A DNA stretch of 64,000 nt from positions 19,572-83,571 of the IMG/VR virus record IMGVR_UViG_3300005805_000065, one strand, 5' to 3'. This DNA comes from a virus. Taxonomy: Duplodnaviria; Caudoviricetes. The notes below the pieces were generated by a model. That model had not been told where the DNA came from and did no database searches. It worked only from the letters and a program-made list of their open reading frames with translations. Below, one piece after another: positions 27,071 through 46,256 of this stretch. Position 1 is the stretch's first letter; every line of letters starts with the position of its first letter. The translations under genes were made by a program, and so were the position numbers.

Positions 27071-27279
27071 TGGCATACAATGTTAAGTCTAAAGGTATAT
27101 CCTATACAGCTAAATATTGGTTTGCTCGTGGATATGCAGATTGTATGAATAATATTGATAATCCACCTAGTATTGAAATGCAAGAATACTTTTTGGAAAC
27201 TTTAAAAGTAAATGTAATAGATGAATACAATCATGGCAAAAAAGTTGCCGAAAGAGACAAAGTAAACCGTGGAGGTTAA
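27070..27279 (+). CDS. hypothetical protein
   Basis: Coupled ORF. Confidence 0.55.
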   Translation: MAYNVKSKGISYTAKYWFARGYADCMNNIDNPPSIEMQEYFLETLKVNVIDEYNHGKKVAERDKVNRGG

Positions 27280-27280
27280 T

Positions 27281-28246
27281 ATGAAAAATAAGCAAGTATC
27301 AAACAACAACAACAAGGAGAAAGTAGTGAAAAATAAAACTACCTCTAATCAATTAACAGCAAAGCAAGCCAGAAAGGATTTGAATGTAGCAATTGCTACT
27401 AAACACGAATCCCTCGGTGCAAACTTTGATATTGGACACATTTCAAAGATGTCTTCTTTGATTAAAGTTTCTGATATGTTTGTTGATTACACCTATCAGC
27501 GTGAACCGTTGAAGGCAAAAATCAACCGTATTGTAAAGAGTTTTGACCCAGATTTGCTTGGTGTAATCACTTGCTCAATGCGTGAAGATAATACATTGGC
27601 AATTATTGATGGTAGCCATAGGTATCATGCATTGATTGCTATGGGAATGAAAAACACAAATGTAAACGCTCTCGTTTACTTTGGTCTATCAATTGAAGAT
27701 GAAGCGCGTATTTTTGCGTTGACTAATAAAGAACACACAAAACCAACGCCGGCACAAATCTTTAAAGCAGGAGTTGTTTCTGGAGATAAATCTGCAATTG
27801 CAATTGATACAATTGTTGATAAAGTTGGTGCTAAAATCCATTTCTCACCTGGCGCTGATAATATTAGATGTGTCGGCACTTTGCGAAAAGTTTACACAAA
27901 TGCCGGTGGAAATGTGCTGGCTAAGACACTAGAAACACTTAAAGCCGCGTACCCAAATAATGAAGAAATGTACAGTGGTCAAATGATTTCAGCAATTGCT
28001 TGCATCTATAATCGATACGGTAAGAAAGTAGATCAACAACGATTGATTGAGACATTAACAAAGATTGGCAACCCTTCAATAGTCATTGCTCAGGCAAAGG
28101 CTATGATTAGCAGTGGTACAGTCGTTACTTTCACTTCATTGCCATATCTTATTGTTAGCCGATACAATGTGAAATTGAAGACTAATCGCCTTACTGATTT
28201 CCCAATGAATTTGGTTGCTCAACAAGTATGGACAAGCAAAGGTTAA
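27281..28246 (+). CDS. ParB/Srx-like N-terminal domain protein (DUF6551-like)
   Basis: VDYTYQR...FDPDLLGVI...IIDGSHR; GGAGG RBS. Confidence 0.75.
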   Translation: MKNKQVSNNNNKEKVVKNKTTSNQLTAKQARKDLNVAIATKHESLGANFDIGHISKMSSLIKVSDMFVDYTYQREPLKAKINRIVKSFDPDLLGVITCSMREDNTLAIIDGSHRYHALIAMGMKNTNVNALVYFGLSIEDEARIFALTNKEHTKPTPAQIFKAGVVSGDKSAIAIDTIVDKVGAKIHFSPGADNIRCVGTLRKVYTNAGGNVLAKTLETLKAAYPNNEEMYSGQMISAIACIYNRYGKKVDQQRLIETLTKIGNPSIVIAQAKAMISSGTVVTFTSLPYLIVSRYNVKLKTNRLTDFPMNLVAQQVWTSKG

Positions 28247-32374: not shown

Positions 32375-32451
32375 GCTGGCGTATACCCTCACTCTTATAA
32401 AGTGTAGAAAGGTTAACTGGTGACATATGGGTTCAAGTCCCATCGCCAGCA
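32375..32451 (+). ncRNA. non-canonical tRNA-like element (UAU anticodon-like loop, no recognisable D-arm in place)
   Basis: GCTGGCG/CGCCAGC acceptor, ATGGG-TTCAAGT-CCCAT T-arm, CACT-CTTATAA-AGTG hairpin. Confidence 0.6.
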
Positions 32452-40468: not shown

Positions 40469-40484
40469 TGTTCCACGTGGAACA
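40469..40484. promoter_or_regulatory. parS-consensus palindrome TGTTCCACGTGGAACA
   Basis: Perfect 16-bp palindrome matching the widespread bacterial parS consensus tGTTtCAcGTGaAACa family. Confidence 0.8.
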
Positions 40485-40706: not shown

Positions 40707-41203
40707 TGGCATAAATTTAAAAGAATATACTGATAGAAACAAATAAACCCCGATTTTTTCATTGCCCTTACTATCGACCTTTTAATCGAGAGAAGTCTCG
40801 AGGATTTTTAGTACAGTTCAAACGACTAATCAACCAATTTTAATATGCAGAGAAAGCCGGATTGATTACAACGTTGTTATTACCGACTTTATAATGTCGG
40901 GGTAGATCAATGGATCTATATCGTCTTTGGTATAGGAATAAATAGAGCCGACTACCCAGCCATTGGCACACAAGGGTGGTCCCTAAAAAAAATTTGCCTG
41001 CATCCGCATAGGCAAAACTAAATACAATTTGAAACAGATATGTAGATATATAGTTATGATTAGGAATATAGATTAAAGTAAAGGAAAAAAGAAATAAAAA
41101 TAAATTGGTGTACAAATAAGAATACATTCTTATTCGGAACACCAACTCAAAGGTTTAGTTTGAAAATATGTAATCAAGTTAGGTAAATACAAATGCAAAA
41201 CAA

Positions 41204-41241
41204 TTGGTGGTCAAGCAGCGCTTAGCTGCTAAGACCACCAA
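41204..41241 (-). other. inverted-orientation TANNC hairpin (module R1)
   Basis: Minus strand TTGGTGGTC-TTA-GCAGC-TAAGC-GCTGC-TT-GACCACCAA. Confidence 0.85.
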
Positions 41242-41247
41242 CGAAAA

Positions 41248-41271
41248 TGCGTGCGCCTTTCGGCGCACGCA
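41248..41271 (-). terminator. intrinsic terminator of cassette 9
   Basis: TGCGTGCGCC-GAAA-GGCGCACGCA-TTTT on minus strand. Confidence 0.85.
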
Positions 41272-41297
41272 CTCCGTGTGAACGGCATTGCCATTGG

Positions 41298-41579
41298 TTA
41301 TTTGGCTAGCGAAACCACACACTCACCGTCAGTAGTCCATTGAATGGACACTTCCAATGAGTGCTGGCTTGCCATTGAAACAACACGATTGCGCACTTTG
41401 TTTTTGTGTGCAATGTAGTTGTCGTCTTCGGGATTGCCTTGTCCGGCTTCGTAGATGAATGCGTCATCTTCTACGCCAGCGTCAAGTGCGAGCAGTTCGG
41501 CTTCCAGGATTGGGTCCTGGAATGCGTCACGACCACGCTTGACTAGTCGGGATTGGATATCGCTCAGGTTCACTTTCAT
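41298..41579 (-). CDS. cassette protein, paralogue family copy 3
   Basis: MKVNLSDIQSRLVKRGRDA...SIQWTTDGECVVS. Confidence 0.85.
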   Translation of the reverse strand: MKVNLSDIQSRLVKRGRDAFQDPILEAELLALDAGVEDDAFIYEAGQGNPEDDNYIAHKNKVRNRVVSMASQHSLEVSIQWTTDGECVVSLAK

Positions 41580-41626
41580 AGTGCGCCTGCCTTTCTTTGT
41601 GATTGGGCAACCCGTTCACGAAGAAC

Positions 41627-41658
41627 ACACTACCTAGACATTGAGAATGTGTATTCAA
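41627..41658 (-). promoter_or_regulatory. cassette promoter (TTGAAT-20-TAGTGT)
   Basis: Member of nine-copy motif. Confidence 0.75.
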
Positions 41659-41685
41659 CAGACTATGCCTATGCATCTAGTGAAC

Positions 41686-41722
41686 GGGCGTGCAACGCAG
41701 CTAGGCGCTGGCTCGCACTCCC
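41686..41722 (+). other. TANNC hairpin (loop TAGGC)
   Basis: GGGCGTGC...CAGC-TAGGC-GCTG...GCACTCCC. Confidence 0.8.
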
Positions 41723-41781
41723 GCCAGGTAAAAGAATTAGAAAATGTATATTAAAAGTGAGACACATAGCGATCCCTAAAG

Positions 41782-41821
41782 GCTGGCGGTCAAGCAGCGT
41801 ATAGCTGCTAAGAACGCCAGC
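41782..41821 (-). other. inverted-orientation TANNC hairpin (module R2)
   Basis: GCTGGCG/CGCCAGC outer stem, GCAGC/GCTGC inner stem, loop TATAC on minus strand. Confidence 0.85.
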
Positions 41822-41827
41822 GAGAAA

Positions 41828-41852
41828 CGCCCCGCCCTTGCGGGGCGGGGCG
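41828..41852 (-). terminator. terminator of cassette 8
   Basis: GC stem with GCAA loop, then TTTCTC on minus strand. Confidence 0.75.
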
Positions 41853-41868
41853 CTCTCACTTGCGGGGA

Positions 41869-42171
41869 TTACTTGCGAAACGAAACGACCATTTCGCCAG
41901 CGTCAGTCCATTGGACGCTGATTTCCACCTCGTCCCCGAGGTGGCGAGTGGCGAGGGAGTTGACACGATTCCGCCAAGTGTTCTTGTGGTTCGTGTACTC
42001 CTCGTTGGTGCTGACGCACTCACCCTCGAATGTCGCCTCCTCGAAGAGGAATGCGTCATCAGGGGTGCTCGGGTCAAGGGCGAGCAATTCCGCTACGAGT
42101 TCAGGGTTCTCGTATGCGTCACGCCCACGCTTGACCAAGCGGGACTGAATCTGTTTCAGGTTGACCTTCAT
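41869..42171 (-). CDS. cassette protein, paralogue family copy 2
   Basis: AAGGAG RBS; MKVNLKQIQSRLVKRGRDA...SVQWTDAGEMVVS. Confidence 0.85.
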   Translation of the reverse strand: MKVNLKQIQSRLVKRGRDAYENPELVAELLALDPSTPDDAFLFEEATFEGECVSTNEEYTNHKNTWRNRVNSLATRHLGDEVEISVQWTDAGEMVVSFRK

Positions 42172-42226
42172 TTCATTTCTCCTTGTTGCGAGGTGATAGG
42201 GAATTGCGTCCTCGTCAACACTCAAC

Positions 42227-42258
42227 ACACTAACTAGGTAATGAGAATGTGTACTCAA
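42227..42258 (-). promoter_or_regulatory. cassette promoter (TTGAGT-20-TAGTGT)
   Basis: Member of nine-copy motif. Confidence 0.75.
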
Positions 42259-42283
42259 CTAACTATGTCTATGGCAACGCAAC

Positions 42284-42325
42284 GCCGGTCGTGCAATGTA
42301 GCTATGCGCTACTATGCCCGCCCGC
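42284..42325 (+). other. TANNC hairpin (loop TATGC)
   Basis: Inner stem TAGC/GCTA. Confidence 0.75.
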
Positions 42326-42383
42326 CGGGGTAAGGTAATTAGAAAATGTGTATTAAAGAGAATGTGAAAGCGATCTCACTGCG

Positions 42384-42422
42384 GCTGGCGGTCAAGAGCG
42401 AATAGCTCGACAGAACGCCAGC
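42384..42422 (-). other. inverted-orientation TANNC hairpin (module R3)
   Basis: GCTGGCG/CGCCAGC outer, GAGC/GCTC inner, loop TATTC on minus strand. Confidence 0.8.
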
Positions 42423-42428
42423 GAGAAA

Positions 42429-42454
42429 CGCCCCGACCCTTTCGGGTCGGGGCG
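42429..42454 (-). terminator. terminator of cassette 7
   Basis: CGCCCCGACCC-GAAA-GGGTCGGGGCG-TTTCTC. Confidence 0.8.
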
Positions 42455-42477
42455 CTTTCGGGGAGTAGGCGTGGTGG

Positions 42478-42774
42478 TTACGCCTTGTATGACACCACCA
42501 TCTCGCCATCCACTGTCCACTGGATGGAGAGTGAGCCATCGGGGATACCGATGCTCGATGCGACCGACTTGACACGGTTGCGCCACAAGTTCTTGTGGTT
42601 CACGTACTCGTCGCTGTCGGTGTCACCTGCGAACGTCGCTTCCTCAAAGAGGAAGGCATCGTCGTTCTCAGGGCTGAGCGCAGTCAGTTCTGCGCTCAAC
42701 TGCTCGTTCTCGTAGGCATCACGCCCACGCTTCACGAGCCTGCTTTGGATGTCTTTCAGGTTTACCTTTGCCAT
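42478..42774 (-). CDS. cassette protein, paralogue family copy 1
   Basis: AAAGGAG RBS; MAKVNLKDIQSRLVKRGRDA...SIQWTVDGEMVVS. Confidence 0.85.
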   Translation of the reverse strand: MAKVNLKDIQSRLVKRGRDAYENEQLSAELTALSPENDDAFLFEEATFAGDTDSDEYVNHKNLWRNRVKSVASSIGIPDGSLSIQWTVDGEMVVSYKA

Positions 42775-42826
42775 TGGGATGGCTCCTTTATGGGTGTCGC
42801 ACGATACCTTCGTGCTGACATCCATC

Positions 42827-42858
42827 ACACTACTTAGGCATTGAGAAAGTGTATTCAA
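42827..42858 (-). promoter_or_regulatory. cassette promoter (TTGAAT-20-TAGTGT)
   Basis: Member of nine-copy motif. Confidence 0.75.
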
Positions 42859-42884
42859 CTTAGTATGCGTATGCTACGAGAGAA

Positions 42885-42923
42885 CTGGCGTGCAAGCGGA
42901 GCTAAGCGCTCCTCGCCCACCAG
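42885..42923 (+). other. TANNC hairpin (loop TAAGC)
   Basis: Inner stem GGAGC/GCTCC. Confidence 0.8.
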
Positions 42924-42942
42924 CCGCAAGACAAAAAGAAAA

Positions 42943-42966
42943 GGGGTGAGCCTTTCGGCTCACCCC
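42943..42966 (-). terminator. terminator of cassette 6
   Basis: GGGGTGAGCC-GAAA-GGCTCACCCC + T-tract. Confidence 0.9.
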
Positions 42967-42973
42967 AGGTCTT

Positions 42974-43288
42974 TCACCTACGCCTGCGCTCTCGTTGGAG
43001 CCTGCGTATGGCTGGTTTGGTGTTGTCGAGGTAGATACCCCATTCAGTACCTTCTCGACGGTATCGCACGGCGTAGTCGCGAACCCTCACACACTTGCTG
43101 TCCTTGCGTGCCAACACGTGCTTTGCCGTGGTGAACACTTTGGTGAACATCACGGCTGTCTCGCTGTCCGAGACAGTCAGAAGTTTCACCATTGTGGGAC
43201 GACGCTTGAGCCTGAGCACTCCGAACGCCTTTCGGAGCCGAGCGAGAGCCCAGTATCCGTATTCGTCTGCCAATGTCATTGTTGCCAT
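42974..43288 (-). CDS. basic cassette protein
   Basis: Between motif promoter and terminator; ends RRLQRERRRR. Confidence 0.75.
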   Translation of the reverse strand: MATMTLADEYGYWALARLRKAFGVLRLKRRPTMVKLLTVSDSETAVMFTKVFTTAKHVLARKDSKCVRVRDYAVRYRREGTEWGIYLDNTKPAIRRLQRERRRR

Positions 43289-43338
43289 TGTTGCCTTTCT
43301 CGCAACCGTTGTCTGAACGGTTGCCGTTGTTGATTAGT

Positions 43339-43370
43339 ACACTAACTAGGCATTGAGAATGTGTACTCAA
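43339..43370 (-). promoter_or_regulatory. cassette promoter (TTGAGT-20-TAGTGT)
   Basis: Member of nine-copy motif. Confidence 0.75.
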
Positions 43371-43396
43371 CTATGGAGAGTGTATCTACCGTGTGT

Positions 43397-43437
43397 GCGG
43401 GCGTGCAACCTAGCTAAGCGCTCGATCGCCCACCCGC
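43397..43437 (+). other. TANNC hairpin (loop TAAGC)
   Basis: GCGGGCG...AGC-TAAGC-GCT...CACCCGC. Confidence 0.75.
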
Positions 43438-43454
43438 CCTAAGACAAAAAAAGA

Positions 43455-43480
43455 GGGCGAGGGGCTTGCGCCCCTCGCCC
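43455..43480 (-). terminator. terminator of cassette 5
   Basis: GGGCGAGGGGC-GCAA-GCCCCTCGCCC + T-tract. Confidence 0.9.
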
Positions 43481-43486
43481 GACTTC

Positions 43487-43729
43487 TTATTCCTCTTCGG
43501 CTTCCATTGCGTCAGCCATTACCTGCCAGCACTCAGCGCCGATTCCTGAGATGAGAACCTCACGGTCGTCGAGGCTCAGGAATGGGAGAGCGTCCTGAAT
43601 CAGGTACTCTCCACTCTGCCATTGGGAGAGCCCGACCATTGTTGCGATGAACAACTCGTCGGGGACAGTCACCGTGTGGTTAGCACCACAGATGACGCAC
43701 TCCTTGTTGTTGGTGATTGTTGCGGACAT
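43487..43729 (-). CDS. cassette protein, putative Zn-binding (CxxC...IQDALPFLS...ISG...C)
   Basis: GAAGGGAAAG RBS; CVIC and ECW motifs. Confidence 0.75.
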   Translation of the reverse strand: MSATITNNKECVICGANHTVTVPDELFIATMVGLSQWQSGEYLIQDALPFLSLDDREVLISGIGAECWQVMADAMEAEEE

Positions 43730-43779
43730 TGCTTTCCCTTCCGCAGTTGGTATCGGACCAACTGCTGTTGTTGAGAAGA

Positions 43780-43811
43780 ACACTACATAGGCATTGAGAA
43801 TGTGTACTCAA
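43780..43811 (-). promoter_or_regulatory. cassette promoter (TTGAGT-20-TAGTGT)
   Basis: Member of nine-copy motif. Confidence 0.75.
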
Positions 43812-43837
43812 CTATGGAGACTGTGTGTATCGTGTGA

Positions 43838-43877
43838 GTGGGCGTTCGCGAAGCTAGGCGCTTAGCCGCCCGCCCAC
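43838..43877 (+). other. TANNC hairpin (loop TAGGC)
   Basis: GTGGGCG/CGCCCAC outer, AAGC/GCTT inner. Confidence 0.8.
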
Positions 43878-43894
43878 CAAAGACAAAAAAAGAG

Positions 43895-43922
43895 GGGAGC
43901 CGAGGCTTTCGCCTCGGCTCCC
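43895..43922 (-). terminator. terminator of cassette 4
   Basis: GGGAGCCGAGGC-GAAA-GCCTCGGCTCCC + T-tract. Confidence 0.9.
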
Positions 43923-43950
43923 ACTCCGTCAGGGCAAGCGTCGGATTGGA

Positions 43951-44286
43951 CTAGCGCCGAGCGAGGCGCAAGGCACGAAGTACCTTGCGAACCCTCGCCT
44001 TGCGCTTATTGCGCTTGCGTGTGCGACGAGCCTTGCGCTTCGTCGCCTCGCTCCACGGCTTGCGCTTGCGCTTGGGCTTGGCGATGTGCCTCACCTGCGC
44101 CTTGGCGCGAGCCTTGGGGCTGGCAACGACCGCTGGGGTCGTCGGGGCGATGACCGTCGCCTGCGGTGCTGGCGCAGTTGCCTGCGCTGGCTTGACTACC
44201 ACCGCTGGCTTGACTGCCTGCGCTGGCTGTGTCTGCCCTGCGAGAAGTGCTCCTCGCAAGGCTGGGTGCTTGCCTGACTTAGCCAT
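43951..44286 (-). CDS. Ala/Pro-rich protein with very basic (K/R) C-terminal half
   Basis: AGGAGG RBS; KPKRKRKPWSEATKRKARRTRKRNKRKARVRK. Confidence 0.75.
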   Translation of the reverse strand: MAKSGKHPALRGALLAGQTQPAQAVKPAVVVKPAQATAPAPQATVIAPTTPAVVASPKARAKAQVRHIAKPKRKRKPWSEATKRKARRTRKRNKRKARVRKVLRALRLARR

Positions 44287-44327
44287 GATGTACCTCCTGG
44301 CTTGTTGGGCTTGCCCTGACACCAACT

Positions 44328-44359
44328 ACCTTACCTAGGCATTGAGAATGTGTACTCAA
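44328..44359 (-). promoter_or_regulatory. cassette promoter (TTGAGT-20-TAAGGT)
   Basis: Member of nine-copy motif. Confidence 0.75.
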
Positions 44360-44385
44360 CTAACAACGAGACAGACATCGTGAGA

Positions 44386-44426
44386 GTGGGCGTACAGCGC
44401 AGCTAAGCGCTGATCCGCACGCCCAC
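44386..44426 (+). other. TANNC hairpin (loop TAAGC)
   Basis: GTGGGCGT/ACGCCCAC outer, CAGC/GCTG inner. Confidence 0.85.
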
Positions 44427-44443
44427 CAGAACACAAAAAGAAA

Positions 44444-44467
44444 GGGGAGGGGCTTTCGCCCCTCCCC
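44444..44467 (-). terminator. terminator of cassette 3
   Basis: GGGGAGGGGC-GAAA-GCCCCTCCCC + T-tract. Confidence 0.9.
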
Positions 44468-44481
44468 AACTTTCCAGCAGT

Positions 44482-44739
44482 CTAAAGACCACTGAACATG
44501 CGCCGTACGGCTTGCTCAAACCGAACGGCTGACCGATACTCAAGCAAGTCCTGATAGATGAACGGACGCTCCGAGCCGAGCATTATGACCTGCTGGACTG
44601 GCTCCATTGACCCATCGGGGTTGATGAGTTTCACGATGAGAGATGTTGCATCCAACGGAGCATTCTCTCGCACCGAGTACGGAAGCGCGATGCCATTACC
44701 AGCATCGAACTCGATTACATTGCCGAAGTAGTACTGCAT
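44482..44739 (-). CDS. cassette protein, hypothetical (85 aa)
   Basis: AAAGGAGG RBS before MQYYFG. Confidence 0.75.
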   Translation of the reverse strand: MQYYFGNVIEFDAGNGIALPYSVRENAPLDATSLIVKLINPDGSMEPVQQVIMLGSERPFIYQDLLEYRSAVRFEQAVRRMFSGL

Positions 44740-44791
44740 GGCAGTACCTCCTTTGCGACTACTTTTGTTTCGTCGCTTGTTGATACCTATT

Positions 44792-44823
44792 ACCTTACCT
44801 AGTGATTGGAAATGTGTACTCAA
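44792..44823 (-). promoter_or_regulatory. cassette promoter (TTGAGT-20-TAAGGT)
   Basis: Member of nine-copy motif. Confidence 0.75.
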
Positions 44824-44850
44824 CAAGTGGAACCGTAGCCATCGAGAGAA

Positions 44851-44890
44851 ATGGTGTTCAGCGCAGCTAAGCGCTGACTCAGTACACCAT
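44851..44890 (+). other. TANNC hairpin (loop TAAGC)
   Basis: ATGGTGT/ACACCAT outer, CAGC/GCTG inner. Confidence 0.8.
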
Positions 44891-44908
44891 CCGAAAGACA
44901 AAAAAGAG

Positions 44909-44947
44909 TGGGGCGCACACACTCGGGGGGTGAGTGTGTGCGCCCCA
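44909..44947 (-). terminator. terminator of cassette 2 (16-bp perfect stem)
   Basis: TGGGGCGCACACACTC/GAGTGTGTGCGCCCCA + T-tract on minus strand. Confidence 0.85.
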
Positions 44948-45001
44948 TTATCTCTTGTTCACCTTGCCTCCCTGTGGCTGGTGGTGGGTGGGATACGGCT
45001 A

Positions 45002-45103
45002 CTACTTGCGGTTGCGCAGGTAGCCGATGATTACAACAGCGCTGAACACGGCAACGGTGATACCGTAGCCGAGATACTCGCTGATGCTGATGGTGATGTC
45101 CAT
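45002..45103 (-). CDS. 33-aa single-pass membrane peptide (cassette 2)
   Basis: AAGGAGG RBS; MDITISISEYLGYGITVAVFSAVVIIGYLRNRK*. Confidence 0.75.
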   Translation of the reverse strand: MDITISISEYLGYGITVAVFSAVVIIGYLRNRK

Positions 45104-45124
45104 CTGTGTACCTCCTTGCCAACC

Positions 45125-45156
45125 ACCTTACCTAGGTATTGGAAATGTGTACTCAA
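45125..45156 (-). promoter_or_regulatory. cassette promoter (TTGAGT-20-TAAGGT)
   Basis: Member of nine-copy motif. Confidence 0.75.
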
Positions 45157-45183
45157 CAAGCGATGTGTACCGTACCGATAGAA

Positions 45184-45222
45184 AGGGCGTGCGAGTCATC
45201 TAGACGATGCATAGCCCGCCCT
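45184..45222 (+). other. TANNC hairpin (loop TAGAC)
   Basis: AGGGCG/CGCCCT outer, CATC/GATG inner. Confidence 0.8.
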
Positions 45223-45240
45223 CCAAAACTCAAAAAGAAA

Positions 45241-45266
45241 GGGGTGGAGGCTTGCGCCTCCACCCC
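45241..45266 (-). terminator. terminator of cassette 1
   Basis: GGGGTGGAGGC-GCAA-GCCTCCACCCC + T-tract. Confidence 0.9.
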
Positions 45267-45272
45267 GATTCC

Positions 45273-45539
45273 TTATTGCTGGACGGTCTGAACCAAGCCA
45301 GCCATCTGGCGAAGCCTATCGACCTCACCTGCTCGGACTTGCGCCCTTGCGTCGTTCGCCTCAACAACTGCCTCAGTCATCTTCAGGACGAGCGAGAGCA
45401 GGTTGCCGATGTGGTGGACGAAGTGAACCATCTGGCTGTCGGGCATTCCGACAACTGCGATGAAGTCGTCCTTGCCGAGCGAGTTCAGGATTGCTTGCGC
45501 CTCCTGCACTCGTTCTGGTGGTGTGAGTGACGTGGACAT
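45273..45539 (-). CDS. cassette protein, hypothetical (88 aa)
   Basis: GAAAGGGG RBS before MSTSLTPP. Confidence 0.75.
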   Translation of the reverse strand: MSTSLTPPERVQEAQAILNSLGKDDFIAVVGMPDSQMVHFVHHIGNLLSLVLKMTEAVVEANDARAQVRAGEVDRLRQMAGLVQTVQQ

Positions 45540-45592
45540 TGCGTTCCCCTTTCGTGGGAGTGTCGCACGAACCGTTCGTGCTGACATCTTCT

Positions 45593-45624
45593 ACTATACC
45601 TAGGCATTGGAAAAGTGTACTCAA
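45593..45624 (-). promoter_or_regulatory. cassette promoter (TTGAGT-20-TATAGT)
   Basis: Member of nine-copy motif. Confidence 0.75.
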
Positions 45625-45650
45625 CTGTTACATTAGCCCTGCCCAACCTT

Positions 45651-45691
45651 GCTGGTGTTCTAATTAGCTACGACGCTACTAGAACACCAGC
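45651..45691 (+). other. array-terminal hairpin (loop TACGAC)
   Basis: GCTGGTGTTCTA/TAGAACACCAGC 12-bp outer, TAGC/GCTA inner. Confidence 0.8.
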
Positions 45692-46028
45692 ATGTGAATT
45701 GACCGGGGGAGACAGACCAAATGGATCGATGTCTAAAATGTTAAGTAACAATGTAAAAATATATACTCAAATTTTTCACAGAATCGGGCGGGAAGAAAAA
45801 TGTCTCCACACATGAGAAACGCACCGAGCGAGAAAGCCCGATGCGCTCTCACCTATAACGGTCCCAAGCAAACGAGTTGCCAGTTACAGTATAAGTTGCG
45901 GGGTATAAAGTAAATAGTTATCTTCGTAAGGTATATAACAAAATAATTTATGCACATATGGTTTGAAAAAAATCGGGGGTTTAAGGATTTTCTCCAGATG
46001 TCGCAGACATTGTGTGTATAATGTCTAT

Positions 46029-46256
46029 ATGAACTTCCAAGAGTGGCTTGAATTGGGTATAAAAAACAATTGGTGCGGTCCTGCTGTGTGCTATACACAC
46101 GATGGAATGCCGGTATCGAAAGAAGAAGACGAGGAATTCGAGCGTGGCGAGGATCCGTGCATGCATGTTTTGCGGTTGTATGAAGATGTCGATATGAAAA
46201 ACAGCGTGGAAGAGTTCCATTCGCCTTCCGTATGGCGCAATTTACGGCACGATTAA
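46029..46256 (+). CDS. hypothetical phage protein
   Basis: MNFQEWL...WCGPAVCYTHDG...DPCMHVLRLY. Confidence 0.65.
   Translation: MNFQEWLELGIKNNWCGPAVCYTHDGMPVSKEEDEEFERGEDPCMHVLRLYEDVDMKNSVEEFHSPSVWRNLRHD

Follow-up and report, generated by a model that had tools for sequence, protein, structure and literature searches.

The 64,000-nucleotide stretch of virus DNA analyzed here (the window, which is the final 64 kb of the 83.6-kb IMG/VR record IMGVR_UViG_3300005805_000065) carries, at 41.2-45.7 kb, an island of short genes punctuated by twelve copies of a DNA hairpin approximately 45 nt long. The hairpin is a conserved, covarying, two-helix imperfect palindrome, and it defines a family across a clade of uncultured freshwater siphoviruses. 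Its fold, conserved positions, strand bias, spacing and distribution are firm observations. As to function, we favor a regulatory, strand-specific DNA hairpin, which would be read by a protein together with a nearby promoter box and would serve as an upstream control element. We assign this reading a probability of about 0.45, and rank it first because it is the only one to account both for the rigid spacing and for a box that is specific to the island. The hairpin probably controls the accessory genes, and may help to shuffle them.

Accessory-gene islands hold the fastest-changing weapons of phages, and their wiring and exchange are known in detail only for a few model phages. The more than 100 natural copies of the hairpin are a ready-made mutational map of the element, in which the loop and the inner stem are constrained in sequence, the outer stem in pairing only, and the spacer that follows in length only. 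This pattern of constraints predicts a specific structure-reading protein, and makes DNA-hairpin regulation testable outside phage N4.

Fold, covariation and strand bias of the hairpin

The entire window was scanned for 3-4-bp stems enclosing a TANNC or GNNTA loop. Exactly twelve copies of the two-helix hairpin were recovered, all of them in the island, at the places given by the original prediction and nowhere else. Nine copies have TANNC on the plus strand, with inner stems starting at 41698, 42299, 42899, 43411, 43851, 44400, 44864, 45197 and 45665. We number these A1 to A9 after the genes that they precede, g1 to g9; on the minus strand, they occupy 45650-45692 (A1), 45182-45224 (A2), 44849-44891 (A3), 44385-44427 (A4), 43837-43878 (A5), 43396-43438 (A6), 42884-42926 (A7), 42284-42326 (A8) and 41683-41725 (A9). 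Three flipped copies, with GNNTA on the plus strand and inner stems starting at 41216, 41795 and 42396, follow the terminators of g9, g8 and g7, respectively: B1 (41203-41241, +), which is the last element of the island, B2 (41782-41822, +) and B3 (42383-42423, +). The individual stems and loops had also been described correctly, including the inner stem of only 3 bp in A6 (43411) and the 6-nt loop of A1 (45665).

All twelve copies fold as single-stranded DNA into an outer stem, an asymmetric internal loop, an inner stem and a loop, with predicted energies from -11 to -18.5 kcal/mol (z from -1.9 to -7.7; A1, with an outer stem of 13 bp, has -15.2 kcal/mol and z -7.0). The minimum-energy fold of two window copies has a shifted inner-stem register of 6-7 bp. 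This alternative register, with a 6-nt loop, is contradicted by compensatory changes in the relatives, and was rejected. In the consensus fold of the twelve copies, 7 of 13 pairs show double-sided changes. A covariance model built from these copies, which scores A4 at 57.6 bits, has no other match in the window save for a weak AT-rich hairpin at 41100-41150 (E 0.23). The hairpin has no T run of its own, and is a second structure located downstream of the T run of the terminator. The remark that it belongs to no named family agrees with the Rfam search, which gave no match to the hairpin at the gathering score, and matches to terminators only at E values up to 5.

Related islands were found by way of the protein encoded by g8, which has about 30 metagenome relatives (42-98% identity), on contigs mostly from lake samples. 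In these contigs, all metagenomic, the backbone is syntenic, and an island of this kind, comprising 5 to 17 cassettes, occupies the corresponding position; pattern scans of IMG/VR yield further contigs with such arrays. The covariance model matches every cassette boundary in the related islands and nothing in their backbones; in a 93.8-kb relative that is 90% complete, all 17 matches are located inside one 6-kb island.

An alignment of 70 distinct rows from the window and 15 related loci, 63 of which are best-strand copies, shows that the covariation claimed from the window is strong across homologues. Standard pairs fill 94.2% of cells, compared to 75.2% in shuffled alignments, and double-sided changes are found in 182 cells, compared to 72; neither value was reached in any of 500 shuffles. 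When pairing partners are slid by 1-3 columns, pairing falls to 22-46%. Several pairs switch freely, for example, G-C 35 / U-A 34, C-G 52 / A-U 9 / U-A 9, or U-A 30 / A-U 25 / G-C 4 / C-G 2. Kinship among the sequences makes the significance from the shuffles somewhat too high, but the slid-partner controls and the variety of pair types argue for a real structure.

The loop and the pairs that close it are nearly invariant: G1, T4 and A5 are present in 63/63 copies, and the closing C-G and G-C pairs in 62/63. Three G-C pairs of the outer stem, one at every third pair, are retained in 62-63 of the 63 copies, and an A on the 3' arm (59/63) stands opposite a G in 36 copies and opposite a T in 23. 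Inner hairpin sequences are lineage-specific. Outer stems vary between the cassettes of one genome, yet remain paired. Mutual information between the two free loop bases and the flanking columns, of the kind expected from a guide code in the style of IS608, did not rise above the lineage structure for any column.

The two strands of the element are not equivalent. Folding predictions with either RNA or DNA parameters give the GNNTA strand a higher stability than the complementary strand for 45 of 46 normal copies and for 12-15 of the 17 flipped ones; since it is favored in both orientations, the asymmetry belongs to the element and not to the direction of transcription. Outside the terminal pair, G.T outnumbers A.C by 11 to 0, and wobble pairs make up approximately 1.5% of cells, which is few for an RNA family. 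The paucity of wobbles, the position between terminator and promoter, the occurrence in both orientations and the lack of an Rfam relative favor a hairpin formed by one strand of DNA. The ends of the loop are conserved G and A, as a sheared G.A closure requires, and we interpret them in this way. Such closure is a feature of very stable DNA mini-hairpins and of the N4 promoter hairpins, and among RNAs it is seen in the pentaloops of boxB and the type I-F CRISPR repeat.

Coupling of the hairpin to a promoter box

Read in the sense of the genes, each of the nine units consists of a GC-rich terminator with a T run, the hairpin, a spacer of approximately 26 nt, a 13-nt box, another 13 nt, TAnnnT, a leader, a Shine-Dalgarno (SD) sequence and an open reading frame (ORF); the placement of the nine normal copies after a terminator and before a promoter is as originally stated. 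The promoter-like modules made of the box, 13 nt and TAnnnT were found by pattern on the minus strand at 45593-45624 (P1), 45125-45156 (P2), 44792-44823 (P3), 44328-44359 (P4), 43780-43811 (P5), 43339-43370 (P6), 42827-42858 (P7), 42227-42258 (P8) and 41627-41658 (P9), and the 13-nt gap is the same in 9/9 of them. A 28-mer around the box occurs nine times in the 83.6-kb record, always within the island, and the box is absent outside the island both in the window and in the 90%-complete relative. A looser box pattern has 25 matches in all (the block-shuffle mean is about 8), adding three copies without a -10 element, one AT-rich copy upstream of the island and one at its downstream edge; the remainder are scattered. 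Boxes without a -10 element lie on the minus strand at 42345-42357, at the usual distance after the flipped hairpin B3, and at 41743-41755, after B2, and a box-like sequence is seen in the AT-rich backbone after B1 (41165-41177, -). The AT-rich box with TAnnnT just upstream of the island (P0, 45738-45770, -) is conserved in relatives.

The distance between hairpin and box is nearly invariant. In the window, from the loop to the first base of TTGAGT, it equals 44 or 45 in 9/9 modules (left to right, 44, 45, 45, 45, 44, 45, 45, 45, 45), in agreement with the original prediction. Within single genomes the loop-to-box distance is identical in 10/10, 8/8, 5/5 and 6/7 cassettes, and in the other genomes it differs by no more than 1-3 nt. 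Alignment of a genome's cassettes on the loop brings out three conserved blocks, with variable stretches between them. Between the cassettes of a genome, identity reaches 94-100% in the box and 55-90% in the inner hairpin, but only 41-62% in the 24 nt preceding the box. With the spacer so diverged, the likeness of hairpins and boxes is not explained by gene conversion of one continuous tract; selection on two recognized sequences, on the pairing of the outer stem and on the length of the spacer explains it better. The box also follows the flipped copies, at the same distance if measured from the center of the hairpin, and for this reason the conserved unit appears to be the hairpin-box pair rather than the complete promoter.

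The first hexamer of the box (TTGAGT-type) is separated from TAnnnT by a gap of 20 nt in the nine modules (41627-45624, -), which exceeds what an unaided sigma70-type promoter allows. In most lineages the box holds a short operator-type palindrome (GAAT-N4-ATTC type). These features suggest that the box may be an operator overlapping the -35 position, or an activator box of the MotA kind.

Neither a sigma factor nor a phage RNA polymerase was detected. The sigma factor families PF04545 and PF04542 had no match in the contig, and PF04542 had none in the 90%-complete relative. The phage RNA polymerase family PF00940 gave no match, but a control search likewise matched nowhere. The giant ORF encoding the tape measure protein matches tape-measure families only; it lacks a DxDGD motif, a single DxDxD of a relative is not conserved, and no polymerase match was found in PDB or Pfam. 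We infer that transcription from these promoters is carried out by the host polymerase, aided or controlled by a factor that binds the box and the hairpin.

It had been proposed that the hairpins act as a transcription signal of the N4 kind during genome entry. Hairpin promoters of the N4 virion RNA polymerase, studied in the Rothman-Denes laboratory, reportedly have stems of 5-7 bp and 3-nt loops, and are located about 11 nt before the transcription start; N4 hairpins serve early-gene transcription. The elements discussed here resemble them in being small DNA hairpins formed by one strand, extrudable by supercoiling, with an unusually stable loop and a purine-purine closure. However, they measure 45 nt, have two helices and a 5-nt loop, and lie approximately 83 nt before the predicted start (44-45 nt to the box and about 38 nt beyond), next to a -10 element of sigma70 type. 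The giant ORF is a tape measure in which no polymerase motif was recognized, neither a virion nor a T7-like phage RNA polymerase gene was found, and the N4 proposal is poorly supported.

The mechanism that we consider can be laid out as follows. The hairpin would be the upstream half of a two-part cis element, the other half being the 13-nt box some 26 bp away, and one such element would head each expression cassette. The GNNTA strand would fold out, either through negative supercoiling behind the adjacent promoter or during replication. A phage or host protein would then recognize both the sequence and the shape of the inner stem-loop, only the shape of the outer stem, and the box at its fixed distance. 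Such recognition may determine how strongly, or when, promoters fire that have an unusual 20-nt gap and probably cannot initiate by themselves, and the flipped copies with their boxes lacking -10 elements may be non-initiating versions of the same binding unit. The general idea of the original prediction, a DNA-level structure read by a protein, fits everything that was found (covariation, strand asymmetry and rigid spacing); the structural part stands, and all steps that involve the protein are what we infer.

Several considerations weigh against this reading. No binding protein was identified, and the structure model of the only universal island protein (see below) has no informative fold match. 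Promoters, transcription starts and terminators were all read from consensus only. Hairpins with GC-rich arms of 17-20 bp are slow to extrude from duplex DNA. The complement strand also folds (mean -12 vs -14 kcal/mol), and a symmetric cruciform is a possible form as well. The role proposed for the flipped copies is a guess.

Cassette shuffling and the rival readings

The cassettes differ in content between relatives, and also in order. In the window, the gene of a 33-aa peptide precedes g3 and g4, and in locus L001 the g3 homologue precedes the peptide gene; L007 has the g4 homologue before the g3 homologue, and L009-L011 have the reverse order. Across the loci examined, the cassettes hold at least 38 protein clusters. 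When cassettes change places, each ORF keeps the leader and -10 region in front of it and the terminator behind it. Two genes that are neighbors in L007 are separated in L009 by a block of three cassettes, and the hairpin variant found at their junction in L007 remains next to the downstream gene. This would place one exchange point between the terminator and the hairpin, although this is a single case and a weak one; in general, the scaffolds within a genome are too alike for crossovers to be placed more finely than the scaffold of approximately 130 nt.

This pattern matches the one described for promoter-early stem-loops (PeSLs) of T4-type myoviruses, where exchange between repeated promoter/stem-loop scaffolds results in deletions, insertions and mini-circles, and where protein binding by the stem-loop was a matter of speculation (Arbiol et al. 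2010, PMC2839356; Comeau et al. 2014, PMC4122927). In both cases a composite of terminator, promoter, SD and ATG is repeated between small ORFans (nine scaffolds in the window, and the same in all relatives), and ORFs are gained, lost and reordered at these elements between close relatives. The PeSL stem-loop, however, is the terminator of the upstream gene, and the hairpin studied here is therefore not its equivalent; it is a separate two-helix structure that is not a terminator, whose loop is invariant, whose stems covary and whose strands are unequal, and which keeps a rigid spacing and has flipped copies. The genomic setting also differs, in that the phage has a tape measure of siphovirus type and is not a T4-like myovirus, and in that a GC-rich island is set in an AT-rich genome and has its own box with a 20-nt gap to the -10 element. 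As a side effect of the mechanism outlined above, the scaffold of about 130 nt (hairpin, spacer and promoter) at each boundary would provide homology for excision, insertion and reordering of cassettes, as in PeSLs.

In the host-takeover module of Bacillus phage SPO1 and in phage morons, short genes each, or nearly each, have a strong promoter, ribosome-binding site and terminator. The island is likewise a run of short self-expressed genes, and differs in that those systems are not known to have a dedicated covarying hairpin locked to each promoter. As an array it belongs with the known promoter-terminator cassette arrays of phage hyperplastic regions, and it has an additional hairpin with no described counterpart.

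The original prediction also offered an attC-like recombination substrate, and there are likenesses to integrons: there is one structured imperfect palindrome per cassette, read (if at all) by its fold, and an array-wide similarity such as is seen in chromosomal integrons; the strand-specific fold and the conserved G.A or T-A site may be comparable to the strand-specific fold and mismatched or extrahelical bases of attC. There are also differences. IntI, attI and Pc are all missing, and the integrase family PF00589 is absent from the contig, which CheckV rates as 80% complete, and from the 90%-complete relative with its 17 hairpin matches. There is no RYYYAAC/GTTRRRY core (GTTGAAC turns up by happenstance in only some copies), and what is invariant instead is a set of three G-C pairs, spaced 3 bp apart, together with G.AC in the 3' arm. 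Each cassette has its own box with TAnnnT, SD and terminator, the element is located 5' of the gene unit, three copies are inverted, and both arms of the hairpin are matched; a substrate of attC type in the strict sense is not supported.

A recombination site or hot spot in a wider sense comes second in our ranking, and we find it less likely than regulation. The folded strand or a cruciform would be cut or bound by a host or phage enzyme, such as a recombinase (Xer-type or other), an SbcCD/Mre11-like nuclease or a junction resolvase, and cassettes would be swapped exactly at their borders, as with attC sites but self-expressed. The presence of one element at each cassette boundary and nowhere else, the permuted content and order of cassettes, and the strand-specific fold with conserved mismatches, which recalls attC and the ends of IS608, all fit this picture. 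So do the Mre11/SbcD-like exonuclease (phrog_284) encoded by the phage and the retention of the hairpin variant with the downstream gene (L007 vs L009/L010, one informative comparison). But searches of the contig for tyrosine and serine recombinases and for Y1 transposases (PF00589, PF00239 and PF01797) gave no match, and the 90%-complete relative has no integrase match either. This reading explains neither the rigid hairpin-box distance nor the boxes that follow flipped copies, and the long near-identical scaffolds suffice for homologous exchange with no special site. Crossovers inside the hairpin itself can be discounted, because outer stems differ between cassettes of one genome and yet match perfectly. 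Regulation and recombination are not exclusive, and we tentatively put forward a version that joins them, in which a dedicated protein would recognize the strand-specific hairpin along with the box, set apart by a fixed helical distance, and so turn interchangeable ORFan cassettes on or off or time them, flipping would amount to silencing, and the hairpin might also be a cassette-exchange substrate for a host recombinase or nuclease.

The other three explanations fare worse. An RNA role is unlikely. Transcripts that read through the preceding terminator, or that start at the AT-rich promoter upstream of the island, would carry a stable hairpin whose pentaloop is GNR(N)A-like; a protein would bind it for processing, stabilization or antitermination, or it would act as a CRISPR-repeat decoy. 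In favor of this role, the mRNA-sense strand is the one that folds better in the nine normal copies, G.U-compatible pairs are found on that strand only, and the island resembles a store of small accessory weapons. Lambda boxB and the hairpin of the type I-F CRISPR repeat have a loop of this type, GNNUA closed by C, and the flipped copies (41203-41241 and 41782-41822, +) may resemble the CRISPR repeat in loop type and in a few bases 3' of the stem. Yet the element comes after a terminator and before a promoter, flipped copies retain the asymmetry on the antisense strand, an RNA role gives no reason for a fixed distance to a DNA promoter box, wobble pairs are fewer than an RNA family would have, and stems differ within one genome, unlike the mimic of one host repeat. 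No Rfam family, the CRISPR repeat families included, matched the hairpin even at E up to 5. Still less probable is a selfish or neutral repeat like repetitive extragenic palindromes (REPs) or miniature inverted-repeat transposable elements, spread with the cassette scaffold and devoid of function for the phage. Like REPs and bacterial interspersed mosaic elements, the hairpins are extragenic GC-rich imperfect palindromes that follow genes in both orientations and form inverted pairs, approximately 97 nt apart, and their lineage-specific inner sequences are those expected under concerted evolution. However, compensatory changes maintain the element across lineages with strongly diverged backbones, and the invariant loop, the mismatch positions and the fixed spacer length indicate purifying selection. 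Unlike the REP systems with their RAYT proteins, these have no Y1 transposase (PF01797 absent from the contig) and no GTAG foot motif, and are confined to one phage island; among 185,579 prokaryote genomes scanned with the generic hairpin pattern, no matching repeat family appeared, only single matches in unrelated taxa in about the number that we estimate for chance, which leaves neither a host REP-like family nor a clue to the host. Least probable of all is a replication signal, whether as a hairpin on the lagging-strand template that serves priming or primosome loading, or as a component of an origin that includes the AT-rich stretch between flipped and normal copies. The strand-specific single-strand fold, the AT-rich stretches of 70 nt between oppositely oriented hairpins and the helicase and polymerase of the phage would suit such a signal, but it does not need nine to seventeen copies in one accessory island, and the link to each promoter box would be unexplained.

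The regulatory DNA hairpin therefore heads the list, as it alone covers the spacing and the box. If the hairpin were also to guide exchange, this would point to recombinase-free or host-dependent shuffling of cassettes in phages, and the island would be a phage counterpart of the integron in which each cassette has its own expression signals.

Island genes and their surroundings

The 4.5-kb island has every gene on the minus strand, with nine short ORFs of 33-111 aa, each preceded by a strong SD sequence. In the order of transcription, these are g1 (45273-45539, 88 aa, no family); g2 (45002-45103), which encodes the 33-aa peptide, hydrophobic and with homologues in L001, L007 and L009; g3 (44482-44739, 85 aa); g4 (43951-44286, 111 aa, with a very basic C-terminus); g5 (43487-43729, 80 aa); g6 (42974-43288, 104 aa); and three paralogues of what we call the MKVNL family, g7 (42478-42774, 98 aa), g8 (41869-42171, 100 aa) and g9 (41298-41579, 93 aa), which are the last three genes of the island. 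Terminator-like GC hairpins with T runs were recognized by reading the sequence after each gene, on the same strand, at 45241-45266 (g1), 44911-44946 (g2), 44444-44468 (g3), 43894-43923 (g4), 43455-43480 (g5), 42943-42966 (g6), 42430-42454 (g7), 41829-41851 (g8) and 41248-41271 (g9). After each of the terminators of g7-g9 comes a flipped hairpin, then an AT-rich stretch with a box lacking the -10 element, and then the normal hairpin of the next unit, and hairpins of opposite orientation flank these AT-rich stretches of 70 nt. Many cassettes of the window and its relatives have in common a further stem-loop in the leader, between the predicted start and the SD sequence (e.g. 45545-45590 and 42780-42825, -); it may be an mRNA-stabilizing or regulatory hairpin.

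Searches of Pfam and PHROGs with the nine window ORFs found nothing but phrog_20898, of unknown function, for g5, and none of 20 cassette ORFs of the relatives matched Pfam, which brings the tally to 0 of 29 cassette ORFs tested. The MKVNL family is the only universal island protein. Its structure model has a pLDDT of 86; Foldseek found nothing at E<=0.001, the best VIA-align Z of 5.6 is at the noise level, and the Atlas returned unnamed viral clusters only. The roughly 40 ORFan families of the cassettes are a defined pool of candidates for host-takeover or anti-defense functions.

The GC content climbs to 55-57% at 41.2-45.7 kb, compared to about 35% for the contig, and in every lineage the related islands (48-57% GC) stand out from their backbones (31-37%). 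This excess may come from foreign cassettes, from structural demands of the scaffold, or from GC-biased repair in a recombination hot spot. The DNA of the island has no match among 50,697 phage records, and an exact-pattern scan of IMG/VR with the window's own promoter gave no match either.

The genome itself is that of a tailed phage of siphovirus type, with tRNA genes scattered along it and with genes for a DnaB-like helicase, ribonucleotide reductase, portal, protease and capsid. A polymerase of 1136 aa matches phrog_405, which PHROGs labels only as DNA polymerase. The tape measure protein has at least 3109 aa, its gene being cut by the end of the contig (L026 3-9332, +, at the contig start); the homologous frame in a relative has 4648 aa (G001:C1, about 75.1-89.1 kb), and would imply an extremely long tail.

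Just upstream of the island, at about 45790-45870 (-), all lineages have a long imperfect hairpin of approximately 70 nt, with an invariant 5' arm and a T run after it. Double changes are seen in 8 of its 30 pairs, G.U pairs are many on the sense strand, and Rfam has no match; the candidates are a small RNA and an elaborate terminator for the preceding operon. A small gene at 46030-46256 (+), divergent from the island, lies behind a TATAAT and is almost leaderless; its coding sequence is recognizably conserved in L001, and an overlapping minus-strand ORF of 153 aa is probably spurious. Some 700 bp past the downstream end of the island, at 40469-40484, there is a perfect 16-bp palindrome of parS type, found at the same place in L001, and a ParB-like protein (phrog_1033) is encoded at 27269-28246 (+); a ParB clamp loaded at this palindrome and sliding along the DNA could reach the island. 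Finally, a tRNA-like Rfam match at 32375-32451 (+), with a score of only 34 bits and no ARAGORN call, may be an aberrant or decayed tRNA.

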